From an uncultured Alphaproteobacteria bacterium (GTDB lineage: Bacteria; Pseudomonadota; Alphaproteobacteria; RF32; CAG-239): DNA of 64,000 nt. Every line of letters starts with the position of its first letter. Positions within the stretch are counted from its first letter, which is position 1. The position numbers were made by a program, and so were the translations under genes. The stretch covers positions 11,651 to 75,650 of the forward strand of contig CAKQRZ010000004.1 of assembly GCA_934271715.1 (NCBI GenBank). The letters are read 5' to 3'. The notes below the pieces were generated by a model, which made no database searches, was not told the origin of the DNA, and worked only from the letters and a program-made list of their open reading frames with translations. Positions 11,458 through 61,161 of the stretch are shown piece after piece.

Positions 11458-12165
11458 CTAAAAATGTGCCGTAACATTGCAATATTCAGATGTTTTTCCG
11501 CAAGAACTGCAGGCTTTATGAATTTCATCAAGTGTAATATCCGACAAACATCTTTCACCGTCAGAACAATAAGCGTCTCCCCAAAATACTGTTGTTTTCC
11601 CTACCGAAGATCTGTAAACACCTGCATTTATTGCCGCAGCATGCAATGGTGCATATATGCTTTGAAGCAACTCTTCACAAAATCTTATAGAAAAATTAGG
11701 CGATGTCGGATTTTGCATATTATCATCAAAAGCCACAGTTCCAATATAAACATCAAAAGAAAATCTTTTACCTCTGATATATAAATCAATGCCGTTGCCG
11801 TAAGCATCGGTTGATTGCATGGCATTATGCACAGTCCAGCTGTCTGGAATCAGATTTAATGATTGCGCTAAATCCGTAACACCTACATCTCTTGATGTTC
11901 CTAAATTTTTGAAATCGTCTAAATGTTCTAGCACCCCAAAAATCAGCATGCTATATTCGCTGACAGCCTTATTAAGCTTAAATTTTTCCATCGCTTTGGA
12001 ATATCCGGCAATGCCGCCCACGCTCAACACTCCAATAATGGCTAAAACTCCAAGCATTTCTATCATTGACCGGCCGGCAGAGCAAACGTCATTGCGAGCA
12101 ACGCGAAGCAATCCATACCTCTTGTCCCTATTCTTTCCTTTGAAAAATTCTATACCCTTAAACAT
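11458..12165 (-). CDS. type IV pilin / pseudopilin-like protein with long leader (paralogue 1)
   Basis: Leader MFKGIEFFKGKNRDKRYGLLRVARNDVCSAG precedes the RSMIEMLGVLAIIGVLSVGGIAGYSKAMEKFK prepilin-type hydrophobic N-terminus with Glu at +5. C-terminal Cys pairs are present. GGAGG RBS. Confidence 0.7.
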   Translation of the reverse strand: MFKGIEFFKGKNRDKRYGLLRVARNDVCSAGRSMIEMLGVLAIIGVLSVGGIAGYSKAMEKFKLNKAVSEYSMLIFGVLEHLDDFKNLGTSRDVGVTDLAQSLNLIPDSWTVHNAMQSTDAYGNGIDLYIRGKRFSFDVYIGTVAFDDNMQNPTSPNFSIRFCEELLQSIYAPLHAAAINAGVYRSSVGKTTVFWGDAYCSDGERCLSDITLDEIHKACSSCGKTSEYCNVTAHF

Positions 12166-12180
12166 CTTATTCCTCCTTAA

Positions 12181-12359
12181 GTGTGTAAAAAAAACGACCG
12201 TTATTTTTACACAGCGAAACAGACGGCAATAAAATATTGTAAAAACAGTAAAAAATATCGCAAATGTAAAAAGTTATTGCAAATTCCAACAACCTTTGCT
12301 AGACTACAAAAAACAGCCTAAAAACTGTCCATTTTAAACGGTCGTTTTTTTTTACACAC
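12181..12359 (-). repeat. 178-bp hairpin-flanked upstream cassette, copy 1
   Basis: Bounded by gtgtgtaaaaaaaacgaccgtt ... aacggtcgtttttttttacacac terminal inverted repeats. Contains a conserved core TTGCAATAACTTTTTA..CGAT.TTTTTT. Abuts the RBS of pilin 11458-12165. Confidence 0.7.
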
Positions 12360-12740
12360 TTCCGGCCATTCCAATGCTAAGAATTTCGTCAGATGCCGTT
12401 AACACCGGACAATTTTTGTATATCTCAACTAAAATTAAAAACGGCGGAATTACTCCCGCCGCCTATATATTATTAGCCCTTACGAACTAAAAAATATATT
12501 TTGAGTTTGCGAATAATAAATACAATCTTTATTATCATTAGTTTGTTCCTTATAATTAGTAGAACAAAGCCAAACTCACGCATATGTTCTATTGAACTAT
12601 TGACATTCAGTCAAATATATGCTATCTTAACCTTAGAATAAAGTTAAGAACAGTTTAACTTTGTTCGTGTTGGTTAAAATTTGTCGGTGCAGCAACACCG
12701 ACATATTTTTTATATAATATGCAACCATAAATATCAAGCA

Positions 12741-12776
12741 AAAATTCAAAAGCCGCCCTCTAAACAAGGACGGCTT
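12741..12776 (-). terminator. rho-independent terminator of histidine phosphatase gene
   Basis: Stem agccg/cggct immediately after the stop codon, followed by a U run on the minus strand. Confidence 0.45.
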
Positions 12777-12781
12777 TTAAT

Positions 12782-13369
12782 TTAATCAATCTTATAAAAA
12801 TTTCCGCTTTCACAGTCATACTGCAAATGCAAAACAGCGCAATTTTCAAAGCTGACATTTTTCAGCTGATAACCGCATTGCAATGCGCTGATAACGCCGG
12901 CATGACAAACAACACCGACAACACTCTCTGATTCACCGACAATCTGACGCAAACAAGCATCCACCCTGCAAAAAGCGTCATATTTACATTCCCCATCCGG
13001 AAAATGCAAATACCATGTCTTTTGGTCAGGATTCATCAATTGCTGTTCAAATTCCTTACCGTAAATCTGCCTTACCTCATCAAAAGTCAATCCTTCGGCT
13101 GTTCCAAAATAAACCTCGCGCAAATCAGGCATAACCTCAACCGTTAAATTATCATAATTTTTCGCAATATATCCGGCTGTTTGCTGCGCACGGGTTAAAG
13201 AAGAACAATAAAGTTTTTCCAATCCCAAATTTTTAACTTTTTCAGACAAAGCTTCTGCCTGTTTTTTACCGGTTTCATTCAAAACATCATCACAACCGGA
13301 ACCTTGCCATTTTTGAGCCAAATTCTTATCAGTCTGACCATGGCGGAAGATAAAGATATCTTTCTTCAT
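12782..13369 (-). CDS. histidine phosphatase family protein
   Basis: N-terminal FIFRHGQTDKN RHG motif. Confidence 0.75.
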   Translation of the reverse strand: MKKDIFIFRHGQTDKNLAQKWQGSGCDDVLNETGKKQAEALSEKVKNLGLEKLYCSSLTRAQQTAGYIAKNYDNLTVEVMPDLREVYFGTAEGLTFDEVRQIYGKEFEQQLMNPDQKTWYLHFPDGECKYDAFCRVDACLRQIVGESESVVGVVCHAGVISALQCGYQLKNVSFENCAVLHLQYDCESGNFYKID

Positions 13370-13472
13370 AATTTACATAAGTATATTTTTATAATAAGAG
13401 GTATAATGCTTTATTTTCCGCAATGCAACAAAAAAAATACTCGATTCTCTATTGAATCGAGTATTTTTTAGT

Positions 13473-59460: not shown

Positions 59461-59578
59461 CTTAAAAAATGCTTTCCTTAGGGAGGGCTTTTTTTATGAA
59501 TAACCGACAACTAATACAATACGTCCGCTAATGAGGCGGATTTTTTTATTCAAAATCAAAGCATTGGAAAATCTGGAA

Positions 59579-59756
59579 GTGTGTAAAAAAAACGACCGTT
59601 TAAAAGGGACAGTTTTTAGGCTGTTTTTAGTAATGTAGCAGAGGTTGTTAAGAAATGCAATAACTTTTTATATTTGCGATGTTTTTTGCTGATTTGTGAG
59701 AGTTTTCAGCGTCTTGTTTTGCTGTGTAAAAATAACGGTCGTTTTTTTTACACACT
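59579..59756 (+). repeat. 178-bp hairpin-flanked upstream cassette, copy 3
   Basis: Reverse-complement orientation relative to copies 1 and 2. Abuts the RBS of pilin 59771-60472. Confidence 0.7.
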
Positions 59757-59770
59757 TGAGGAGGAATAAG

Positions 59771-60472
59771 ATGTTTAAGGGTATAGAATTTTTCAGAAGA
59801 AAGAGCTGTGGAACGGAGTTTGGATTGTTTCCCTCAGCTCGCAATGACGTTTGTTCTGCTGGGCGGTCAATGATAGAAATGCTCGGCGTGCTGGCGATTA
59901 TCGCGGTGCTGAGTGTCGGCGGTATCGCCGGATATTCCAAAGCTATGGAGCAGTTTAAGGTTGACAAAGCCGTGAGCGAATACAGCTACTTAATTCAAGG
60001 GCTGTTAGAACACTTAAAAGATTTGCAAAATGTTTCAAAACCCAATGAGGGCGACATTCAATACGGATTAACCAGCGTTGTGGAAGCCGAAAGTTTGGTG
60101 CCGGAAACATGGGAAAAAATATCTAACCACAATTATAATGACCCATACGGGAACTTAATCAGAATTTTCTCCCGTAGCCAAACTTTGGTTATAGATATGT
60201 ATTTGGGCGGTTTCCAATCTGTTGACGGAGGCTCTGCTTCAACTGCATTTTCGCCTAAGTTTTGCAGCGCTTTGATGCAGGATGTGGTTCAACCATTATC
60301 TTCTGTTTTGTACAGCGCTTGGTTTACCTATGGTAATTATTATTATGGCGATAAACATTGTGGCTCAGGTTCAAAATGTATTAGAGATTTGAAACTAAGC
60401 GATATAAATAGGGCATGCAATTACTGCGCTAAACAGTCTGGACGTTTCTGCGGACTAATATTGGAATTTTAA
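59771..60472 (+). CDS. type IV pilin / pseudopilin-like protein with long leader (paralogue 4)
   Basis: MFKGIEFFRRKSCGTEFGLFPSARNDVCSAG|RSMIEMLGVLAIIAVLSVGGIAGYSKAMEQFK. The first 24 nt of the CDS are identical to paralogue 1. Confidence 0.7.
   Translation: MFKGIEFFRRKSCGTEFGLFPSARNDVCSAGRSMIEMLGVLAIIAVLSVGGIAGYSKAMEQFKVDKAVSEYSYLIQGLLEHLKDLQNVSKPNEGDIQYGLTSVVEAESLVPETWEKISNHNYNDPYGNLIRIFSRSQTLVIDMYLGGFQSVDGGSASTAFSPKFCSALMQDVVQPLSSVLYSAWFTYGNYYYGDKHCGSGSKCIRDLKLSDINRACNYCAKQSGRFCGLILEF
59876..60261. repeat. 386-bp perfect inverted repeat, arm A (inside pilin paralogue 4)
   Basis: Verified base by base against the reverse complement of 60743-61128. Confidence 0.9.
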
Positions 60473-60482
60473 TATTATGTCC

Positions 60483-60529
60483 ATAAAAGAACAGTCTTGG
60501 TTTTGGATAAAAACTAAGACTGTTTTTCG
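60483..60529. terminator. bidirectional terminator between convergent pilin genes
   Basis: Stem aacagtctt/aagactgtt with flanking A and T runs. Confidence 0.5.
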
Positions 60530-60531
60530 GT

Positions 60532-61161
60532 TTAAAATACTAAAATAAGTCCGCAGAGTTTGTTTGCTTCTTTGGTGCAGTAATTACATACATTGTTAAT
60601 TTCTCTTAAGCTTATATTTCTGATGCAGTGTGTACTTTCGCTGCAATAAGCGTCTCCCATATATTCATTTCCATTTGTAAAGAAAGCTTTATTTAAAACA
60701 GATGCTAAAGGCTGCACCACATTTTGCATAAGCGATGAACAGAACTTAGGCGAAAATGCAGTTGAAGCAGAGCCTCCGTCAACAGATTGGAAACCGCCCA
60801 AATACATATCTATAACCAAAGTTTGGCTACGGGAGAAAATTCTGATTAAGTTCCCGTATGGGTCATTATAATTGTGGTTAGATATTTTTTCCCATGTTTC
60901 CGGCACCAAACTTTCGGCTTCCACAACGCTGGTTAATCCGTATTGAATGTCGCCCTCATTGGGTTTTGAAACATTTTGCAAATCTTTTAAGTGTTCTAAC
61001 AGCCCTTGAATTAAGTAGCTGTATTCGCTCACGGCTTTGTCAACCTTAAACTGCTCCATAGCTTTGGAATATCCGGCGATACCGCCGACACTCAGCACCG
61101 CGATAATCGCCAGCACGCCGAGCATTTCAATCATAGAACGCCCTATTTGATTATTTTTCAT
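60532..61161 (-). CDS. type IV pilin / pseudopilin-like protein (paralogue 5, short leader)
   Basis: MKNNQIG|RSMIEMLGVLAIIAVLSVGGIAGYSKAMEQFK. Identical to paralogue 4 over 128 codons, then diverges at the C-terminus. Confidence 0.75.
   Translation of the reverse strand: MKNNQIGRSMIEMLGVLAIIAVLSVGGIAGYSKAMEQFKVDKAVSEYSYLIQGLLEHLKDLQNVSKPNEGDIQYGLTSVVEAESLVPETWEKISNHNYNDPYGNLIRIFSRSQTLVIDMYLGGFQSVDGGSASTAFSPKFCSSLMQNVVQPLASVLNKAFFTNGNEYMGDAYCSESTHCIRNISLREINNVCNYCTKEANKLCGLILVF
60743..61128. repeat. 386-bp perfect inverted repeat, arm B (inside pilin paralogue 5)
   Basis: Exact reverse complement of 59876-60261. Confidence 0.9.

Follow-up and report, generated by a model that had tools for sequence, protein, structure and literature searches.

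The residue at position +1 of a prepilin is usually Phe or Met and becomes N-methylated, and the opa genes of Neisseria carry CTCTT repeats. In Rickettsia, coding genes reportedly contain in-frame palindromic repeats, said to have been described by Ogata et al. in 2000. Rickettsia palindromic elements, as in-frame palindromic repeats in coding genes, are reviewed among the miniature inverted-repeat transposable elements (PMC10969869), and the oipA gene of Helicobacter pylori has CT dinucleotide repeats in its signal-peptide region (PMC10564699). Here we describe a protein family that departs from the usual +1 residue and in which features resembling the repeats and palindromes occur together. 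The window, a 64,000-nucleotide stretch of contig CAKQRZ010000004.1 from an uncultured alphaproteobacterium of the RF32 lineage, contains five paralogous genes, here called c1 to c5, which a preliminary description had singled out as dispersed type IV pilin- or pseudopilin-like genes. We consider c1-c5 to encode, with a probability of about 60%, phase- and antigenically variable subunits of a type IV pilin/GspG-like pseudopilin-type family of gut and rumen Alphaproteobacteria.

The five paralogues and their pilin-like N-terminus

Six-frame translation of the window returned exactly five open reading frames (ORFs) with the G-RSMIEMLGVLAI motif, at the positions given in the preliminary description. 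Their starts were set from the DNA together with gene calls on identical contigs from other samples. In the following, the bar in G|R follows Gly-1, and L-numbers denote related loci or contigs, L090-L179 being metagenome contigs.

11458-12165, minus strand: c1, pilin-like gene, 235 aa; 30-codon leader MFKGIEFF...ARNDVCSAG, then RSMIEML...; Gly-1 codon at 12073-12075
15156-16028, minus strand: c2, pilin-like gene, 290 aa; start of the c3 type, MYKNFEN; Gly-1 codon at 15786-15788
38038-38682, minus strand: c3, pilin-like gene, 214 aa; short leader MYKNLEKG|RSM; the gene call in L004 is also 214 aa
59771-60472, plus strand: c4, pilin-like gene, 233 aa; 30-codon leader; convergent with c5
60532-61161, minus strand: c5, pilin-like gene, 209 aa; short leader MKNNQIG|RSM

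All five share the N-terminus G|RSMIEMLGVLAI(I/V)(G/A)VLSVGGIAGYSKAM, and its near-invariance, pointed out before, is borne out by 82-100% identity over mature residues 1-40. Beyond residue 40 the identity is 31-34%, with the exception of c4 and c5 (81%). An alignment with 46 homologues gave conserved cysteines (c5 numbering) at C141, C173-x5-C179 and C192-x2-C195-x7-C203, which is the Cys pattern already described plus one further upstream Cys, C141. Pfam annotation of every neighbour confirmed that the genes are single and dispersed among housekeeping genes. The claim that each gene has its own terminator stood only in part: there is a hairpin 3' of each, but one bidirectional hairpin is common to c4 and c5, and a clear U-run is seen only for c3, c4 and c5. 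Overlooked in the preliminary description were the leaders of c1, c4 and c2, the conserved upstream RNA and DNA elements, and a sixth pilin-domain gene.

Class III signals are recognized by Gly-1 and Glu+5 and by a stretch of ~20 hydrophobic residues, and the family has both. Gly-1 is found in 126 of 126 distinct members, Glu+5 (E12) is invariant, and the LGVLAI..VLSVGGI stretch is invariant or nearly so (51 sequences). The hydrophobic +1 residue of the prepilin N-terminal domain is not found; this position is occupied by Arg in 124 members and by Lys in the other two. The combination of a class III signature with an unusual Arg+1, as first proposed for the five genes, extends to the family.

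Searches with hidden Markov models (HMMs) matched only prepilin-type families, all below threshold: N_methyl (PF07963; 13.2-15.5 bits, cut-off 21.2), TIGR02532 (10.7-13.6 bits, cut-off 16.3), GspG (TIGR01710/PF08334; 15.6-16.2 bits, cut-off 88.85), XpsH (11.7 bits, cut-off 160) and prepilin-peptidase-dependent proteins. No Pfam match whatever was obtained for c1 and c2. The PF07963 and TIGR02532 check proposed earlier was thus run and ended under the curated cut-offs; assignment to a non-pilin family, the outcome named in advance as speaking against pilins, did not occur, as no non-pilin family was matched. Aligned by hhalign with E. coli GspG, the family profile covered 114 columns (E 1.7e-4, probability 49%), spanning the cleavage site, the helix and then an 'LVP..W....DPYGN' block that matches 'DPWGN' of GspG. 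An AlphaFold (AF2) model had a predicted local distance difference test (pLDDT) score of 86.7, with values >90 in the globular part, and consists of a helix (29-55), five strands, two more helices and further strands that include the Cys-rich part. Structure prediction, also proposed earlier, gave this confident model but no counterpart: a Foldseek search of it against the PDB returned no match with E < 0.6, and the family profile matched nothing among PDB sequences but gp41, by chance. The pilin-like identity is consistent with the class III signature and the weak GspG alignment; the sub-threshold HMM scores and the missing PDB fold do not speak for it. The N-terminal half probably works like GspG-type pseudopilins and pilins and is probably homologous to them, while formal membership is not established.

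Leaders and upstream elements

Only c3 and c5 have short leaders. Those of c1 and c4 comprise 30 codons and that of c2 ~80, the latter an in-frame series of four hairpin-forming modules between MYKNFEN and G|RSM. An in-frame open run of at least 50 codons precedes Gly-1 in 54 of the 126 members (4-5 for the two other frames), and one of at least 100 codons does so in 21 members (0 for the other frames). At the level of sequence, these counts show that the open frame in the leaders is under selection. Leaders reach ~200 codons and draw on a small repertoire of palindromic modules; widely different in length and sequence, they all end exactly at G|R. The RNA of the c2 leader is predicted to fold at -85.3 kcal/mol (z -5.5). 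Using its start region and modules as a blastn query we obtained 53 matches. Of these, 39 precede a family member and lie on its coding strand; the remaining 14 consist of four palindromic self-hits (the window and near-identical loci), seven same-strand matches, at least four of which lie upstream of a second, Cys-rich family described below, and three reverse-strand matches (L126, L044 and one in the self-hit set). In L176 and L089 the cassettes are identical up to '...LLRVARND' and continue either directly with G|RSM or with further modules, which suggests that leader modules are inserted or deleted at a preferred exchange junction.

In many relatives the gene opens with a cassette of the layout GAGGAAAGAAAG-ATG-AAAAATAAGC...GGT-(CT)n-GCAAATCCT, and the c5 orthologue in L007-L009 does so as well; in these genes, then, a repeat tract lies in the 5' coding part and its length determines the frame. 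Tract lengths in 41 cassettes were n=6 (four times), n=7 (26 times) and n=8 (11 times). The n=6 alleles are in frame, and three of the four are full-length ORFs into the pilin; n=7 and n=8 are out of frame. A family gene follows within 900 nt in 34 of the cassettes, and in every one of these the frame read at multiples of 3 stays open over the 95-670 nt from the tract to G|RSM. In one pair of cassettes, 97.9% identical across 338 nt, the tract lengths differ by a single CT unit. By analogy, this is the pattern of slipped-strand frame switches such as that of H. pylori oipA. Programmed ribosomal frameshifting at the tract was rejected because n=7 and n=8 would require shifts in opposite directions.

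Three of the five genes, c2, c3 and c5, are preceded by a conserved RNA motif (RBS, ribosome-binding site):

16066-16298, minus strand: leader of c2; promoter-like TTTACT-17-TAAAAT at 16270-16298, RNA motif at 16097-16265 (165 bits), terminator at 16066-16087 just before the RBS
38714-38912, minus strand: leader of c3; RNA motif at 38749-38912 (177.8 bits), terminator at ~38714-38741
61190-61374, minus strand: leader of c5; diverged subtype of the RNA motif at 61228-61374 (41.7 bits, E 8e-8), terminator at ~61190-61215

A conserved promoter-like CTTTAC-N17-TAAAAT lies ahead of the motif, and an intrinsic terminator and, ~25-30 nt on, the RBS follow it. The motif has seven helices, including a long-range helix with a sequence that differs in almost every copy, and among nine sequences 12 pairs show compensatory changes. 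A covariance model found 48 copies in 1.42 Mb, 42 of which have a family gene within 900 nt downstream. In the resulting alignment, which is fitted to the model, 93.7% of cells are paired compared with 27-42% in slid controls, and compensatory changes occur at 39 of 43 pairs. Alternatively, the 3' strand of helix P4 can pair with the sequence that flanks the terminator on its 5' side. P4 and the terminator are 100% paired in 11 diverse sequences, and the alternative (antiterminator) helix is 96% paired compared with 22-51% in controls, with three compensatory pairs. Both marks of an attenuator, a covarying conserved structure and a mutually exclusive terminator and antiterminator, are thus found, the second in an alignment of only 11 sequences. 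As predicted from this pairing, the RNA leader has the architecture of a transcription-attenuating switch. A second possibility, by analogy, is an IsrK-like mode in which the terminated leader would act on read-through transcripts (PMC4825925). The leader had no match in Rfam 15 at gathering thresholds and matched no known aptamer class or riboswitch. Its 3' half recurrently gave sub-threshold matches to sRNA-Xcc1 (RF02221; 29-33 bits, gathering 53) and C4 antisense RNA (RF01695; 22 bits, gathering 45), and membership in either was rejected on these scores.

The remaining two genes, c1 and c4, have a different upstream element, a 175-bp cassette with two related sites, P and D, of which the window holds a third copy:

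12182-12358, minus strand: P/D cassette of c1; 30-bp palindromic P site abutting the RBS, half-degenerate D site ~144 bp upstream
59580-59754, plus strand: P/D cassette of c4; P site 8 nt before the RBS GAGGAGG
43824-43999, plus strand: third P/D cassette; between tRNA-Thr (P side) and an Acyl_transf_3 gene at 44016-45182 (D side)

The P and D sites are in inverted orientation, ~144 bp apart, and promoter-like hexamers lie between them. Inverted repeats flanking a promoter next to a regulated gene, as in an invertible promoter (inverton), are therefore present; a second orientation of the cassette was not found. We hunted for flipped copies in nine same-species loci, 79 genome loci and two metagenome scans, and among >65 copies found no demonstrable flipped junction. 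An exact search of the metagenome collection returned 0 stretches with the flipped junction versus 90 with the site itself. Since no flipped junction was found, we regard the element as a shared promoter/operator cassette.

Several observations were made around the cassette. The product of the gene at 44016-45182 is a possible surface-polysaccharide acyltransferase, and the D end faces the gene there. The same cassette precedes, in related contigs, the genes of a second family, whose large Cys-rich exported proteins have a signal peptide followed by KICFLPDSSCG... (L093, L096, L103, L148, L166, L090, L100 and L150); some copies carry the same in-frame palindromic leader modules ahead of the signal peptide. 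Many of the L090-L179 contigs have a terminus no more than a few bases from the 21-nt P/D site, and a large number of contigs of metagenome-assembled genomes (MAGs) stop just upstream of family genes; because contigs end there, P/D sites and family elements evidently break assemblies. Next to the third cassette, an integrated element of ~4.6 kb (38999-43710, ~32% GC) lies at tRNA-Thr (43665-43740, minus strand). A 61-nt direct repeat of the 3' part of the tRNA (38999-39059 and 43650-43710) flanks the element, which has two Phage_integrase genes, at 39362-39952 (196 aa) and 42346-43413 (355 aa). L005 is without this island and without c3, and L006 has a different prophage at the site. The latter contains at 17443-18585 a reverse transcriptase gene (RVT_1, 380 aa) beside an 892-aa gene without Pfam match and a very large MuF/ParB-like gene, a region that may be a diversity-generating retroelement.

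Recombination, family size and assembly machinery

The pair c4/c5 provides an example of recombination within the window. The two genes are convergent and form an inverted repeat in which a 300-nt block, nucleotides 61-360 of the mature part, is 100% identical; beyond this block the 3' 250 nt are 55-80% identical, with many non-synonymous changes. In other samples, proteins 88-97% identical to c5 bear wholly different leaders, and internal segments or C-termini of c5-like proteins come from other paralogues, for example a c5 front joined to a c4 tail. The c5 locus has a different upstream cassette in three other samples, and in the syntenic pair L025 and L152 the flanks are conserved and the pilin genes in between replaced. 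From these comparisons it is largely shown, as far as sequence can do so, that C-terminal parts are swapped between paralogues by recombination and that whole upstream expression cassettes are exchanged between loci and strains. The earlier proposal of a constant N-terminus with variable C-termini under diversification gains support from both the mosaic alleles across strains and the divergence of c4 and c5.

The family is large. We identified 6,707 related clusters at E <= 0.001, which NCBI names 'T2SS GspH family protein' (T2SS, type II secretion system) or 'hypothetical', and at least 564 loci in species-representative genomes; among 80 of the 564 loci listed, single MAGs have at least 10-17. 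All hosts are uncultured Alphaproteobacteria MAGs, from the human gut (Hadza, Nepal and others), deer gut and rumen, and the family matches include no record from a cultured isolate. Some MAGs rich in family copies are labelled Bacteroidaceae, Lachnospiraceae or Eubacteriales (L014, L017, L012, L066 and others); these are probably mislabelled or chimeric bins. A literature search with the N-terminal peptide string found no paper, and one on RF32, Alphaproteobacteria and pilin yielded nothing describing the family among the papers listed.

Within the window, neighbour Pfam annotation, a motif scan and tblastn revealed no T2SSE, T2SSF, Peptidase_A24 or secretin gene, and regex screens found no PilB/GspE Walker A, PilD GGGD or secretin motifs. 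We also searched 1.93 Mb of fragments around family genes by tblastn with E. coli GspD, E, F, K, L and O. GspD, GspF, GspL, GspK and GspO were not found in these related loci, and the sole match was one GspE-like gene encoding a 318-aa T2SSE-family ATPase nearest to the PilT/PilU models. The ATPase is kept in many related MAGs at 80-100% identity. Its gene is solitary, adjoins a FadL-like porin gene and Bundlin/PilS-like genes, and has no platform or peptidase gene in its neighbourhoods. From the conservation of this solitary ATPase it follows that the clade has parts of a type IV filament system, in scattered form. The preliminary statement that no machinery lies nearby is thus true for the window and overstated for the clade, where related MAGs carry the solitary PilT/GspE-superfamily ATPase.

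The window has one further pilin-domain gene:

22646-23488, minus strand: unrelated pilin-domain gene, 280 aa; 3 nt after secA; above Pfam cut-offs for PilS (5e-9) and Bundlin (1e-8)

Its product, of the PilS/Bundlin (type IVb pilin) kind, has a transmembrane helix and is without a G|xxxxE site. Kinship with the c1-c5 family was considered and rejected, as hhalign shows none. Genes similar to it adjoin the solitary T2SSE ATPase in related MAGs. Elsewhere in the window, two conserved proteins without Pfam match are encoded upstream of c2 (16970-18685 and 18675-19970, both minus strand). One of them, of 571 aa, contains HENGH (HExxH) and may accordingly be an unclassified metallopeptidase.

Interpretation and comparison with known systems

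If c1-c5 are variable pilin-like subunits, a precursor with a cytoplasmic leader would be inserted through the invariant hydrophobic N-terminus, and an A24 peptidase would cut after Gly-1 to leave a mature N-terminus with Arg+1 and Glu+5. One may speculate that the Arg+1 side chain helps to neutralize Glu+5. Polymerization of the subunits via the constant helix would then leave the variable Cys-rich C-terminal domain exposed. Most copies would be silent at any one time. Control over single copies appears to be exerted by the structured RNA leader choosing between terminator and antiterminator (c2, c3, c5), by the conserved 175-bp promoter/operator cassette (c1, c4) or, in many relatives, by a (CT)n tract in the leader that is in frame only if n is a multiple of 3. 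Since it would be removed at maturation, the part before Gly-1 could house the repeat tract together with as many as ~200 codons of palindromic modules, provided that the frame stays open, as it does. Cleavage would thereby explain both why modules and tract accumulate exactly there and why an open frame is needed. More tentatively, and with the balance of probability somewhat against it, the whole may form a multi-layer surface-variation system based on an Arg+1 pilin family, in which complete genes, dozens per genome, swap variable domains as well as translated, disposable leaders made of in-frame palindromic modules and a (CT)n frame switch, a subset is gated by the riboswitch-like RNA, and the machinery is highly reduced or non-canonical and dispersed.

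Several observations weigh against variable pilin-like subunits. Arg stands at +1 instead of the usual Phe or Met, every pilin HMM score is under its curated cut-off, and the hhalign probability to GspG is no more than 49%. The tblastn search of the 1.93 Mb, which are pilin-gene fragments and not whole genomes, gave no GspO/PilD, GspF/PilC or secretin, and the only ATPase found is solitary and from more distant species. We know of no prepilin leaders of 80-200 residues. The (CT)n tract is present in none of c1-c5, 37 of the 41 cassettes are out of frame, and an all-against-all comparison gave no clean same-locus pair differing only in n, the near-identical pairs being cassettes and not loci.

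Some of these points would suit bitopic inner-membrane proteins in which the pilin-like helix is an uncleaved anchor or oligomerizer and the Cys-rich domain is periplasmic, an explanation that we consider unlikely. The lack of machinery in the window and of peptidase, platform and secretin in the related loci, the sub-threshold HMM scores, the atypical Arg+1 and the missing PDB fold are all consistent with it, as is the neighbouring 280-aa Bundlin/PilS protein, likewise a transmembrane-helix protein without cleavage site. However, an anchor has no need of Gly-1, which is invariant in 126 of 126 members although it lies outside the hydrophobic helix, and leaders of very different length and sequence would not be expected all to stop exactly at G|R. 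Repeat switching, mosaicism and at least 10-17 copies per genome suit exposed antigens better, and a T2SSE-family ATPase is present in the clade. It is highly improbable that the proteins are ordinary T2SS pseudopilins (GspG/GspH) forming a periplasmic pseudopilus, even though one cluster goes by the name 'T2SS GspH family protein' in an NCBI source and the best profile similarity is to GspG. The GspG and XpsH models give 12-16 bits against cut-offs of 89-160, the genes are single, dispersed and outside any gsp operon, GspD, GspF, GspL, GspK and GspO are absent from the 1.93 Mb, and dozens of divergent switch-bearing copies per genome are not a T2SS trait.

The expression elements can also be read differently. 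If the long leaders were untranslated 5' UTR repeats resembling repetitive extragenic palindromic (REP) sequences, into which gene callers extend the ORFs, translation would start at an overlooked codon near Gly-1 and the (CT)n tract would lie in a short upstream ORF and not act as a frame switch. The strongly palindromic modules would fit, as would the 13-20 codon ORF that is all the cassette ATG opens with n=7 or 8, the 37 of 41 cassettes that are 'off' and the internal GTG or TTG starts chosen by gene callers; c1 and c4 have an in-frame TTG 13 codons before Gly-1 with a weaker RBS-like AGAGG or ACGGAG. We nevertheless think this rather improbable, since open runs in the frame of G|RSM are much more frequent and longer than in the two control frames, this frame stays open past the tract in 34 of 34 cassettes (95-670 nt), three n=6 alleles are uninterrupted ORFs from the cassette ATG, and neither ATG nor GTG occurs in c1, c4 or c2 on the way from the strong RBS plus ATG to Gly-1. 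For the P/D cassette, inversion by a site-specific recombinase is suggested by two inverted sites of 21-23 bp ~144 bp apart with an asymmetric central dinucleotide (AC vs GT), by the promoter-like hexamers that they flank beside the RBS, by the same cassette adjoining the acyltransferase gene, by the 196-aa tyrosine recombinase gene at 39362-39952 and by the many metagenome contigs that break exactly at the sites. Against this, in >65 copies from many samples and several species it is invariably the palindromic site that adjoins the RBS and ATG of the cassette gene. The 'D'-labelled pilin cases L143 and L153 appear to be truncations at contig starts rather than flips, L151 being a third truncation, and the flipped junction was not found, including 0 versus 90 site stretches in the metagenome collection. 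An inverton is accordingly a very doubtful explanation.

As variable pilin-like subunits, the family would be a strong candidate for the main interface of these gut bacteria with host immunity or phages, because it is large and bears signatures of recombination and frame switching. A biochemical question is also raised, namely whether a prepilin peptidase could process Arg+1 substrates with leaders of 30-200 residues. Given its well-supported structure, its clear expression platform and its defined regulon, the RNA leader is a ready candidate for the discovery of a ligand or trans-acting target. If palindromic modules are indeed tolerated in frame only in a discarded leader, this would explain selfish-looking repeats inside genes.

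Compared with type IV pilins and GspG, the family has in common Gly-1, Glu+5 and a hydrophobic helix of ~20 residues, a short basic leader in c3 and c5, the GspG-like 'LVP..W....DPYGN' block, and a constant N-terminus combined with a variable C-terminus and C-terminal Cys pairs. It differs in having Arg (rarely Lys) at +1 and sub-cut-off HMM scores, in an extra Cys-rich C-terminal domain of ~90 residues without PDB match, and in genes that are dispersed singly, away from any machinery, with leaders of up to ~200 codons. Like pilE/pilS of Neisseria, it has many copies with conserved 5' and variable 3' parts, abrupt identity changes inside genes and mosaic alleles suggesting gene conversion. Unlike pilS, the copies are complete genes with their own starts and promoter-like regions and not silent cassettes, and we identified no G4 or pilE-type expression locus for the family.

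As in oipA and opa, the gene segment for the leader that would be removed contains a short repeat tract, tract length sets the frame, and most copies are out of frame. Here, however, the putative switch acts on a pilin-like cargo with a class III signal, n took only the values 6, 7 and 8, and the tract can lie up to ~670 nt upstream of the mature part with in-frame palindromic modules between. Those modules resemble the Rickettsia palindromic elements in being 40-200 nt long, present in many copies and tolerated in open ORFs of alphaproteobacterial hosts. They differ in that, in the sequences sampled here, all but three of the matches are on the coding strand in the leaders of two exported families, always ending just before Gly-1 or the signal peptide.

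The RNA leader shares with attenuating riboswitches, C4, IsrK and sRNA-Xcc1 (RF01695, RF01394, RF02221) its own putative promoter, a conserved multi-helix fold, an intrinsic terminator just before the regulated gene and, as predicted, a mutually exclusive terminator and antiterminator. In contrast to C4 and sRNA-Xcc1 it has an additional domain on the 5' side and a hairpin loop engaged by a long-range helix, and is associated almost only with the pilin-like family. A conceptual parallel is provided by pil1 of Streptococcus gallolyticus, where an attenuation-like upstream leader is reported to gate a pilus gene, which gives heterogeneous expression (PMC3894217); the organism, the type of pilus (sortase) and the sequence elements are different. 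Overall, the components are of known kinds, namely pilin-like subunits, gene conversion, CT-repeat switches, in-frame palindromes and attenuator RNAs, and what appears to be undescribed so far is their combination, together with the Arg+1 signature, the leaders of up to ~200 codons and the RNA motif.

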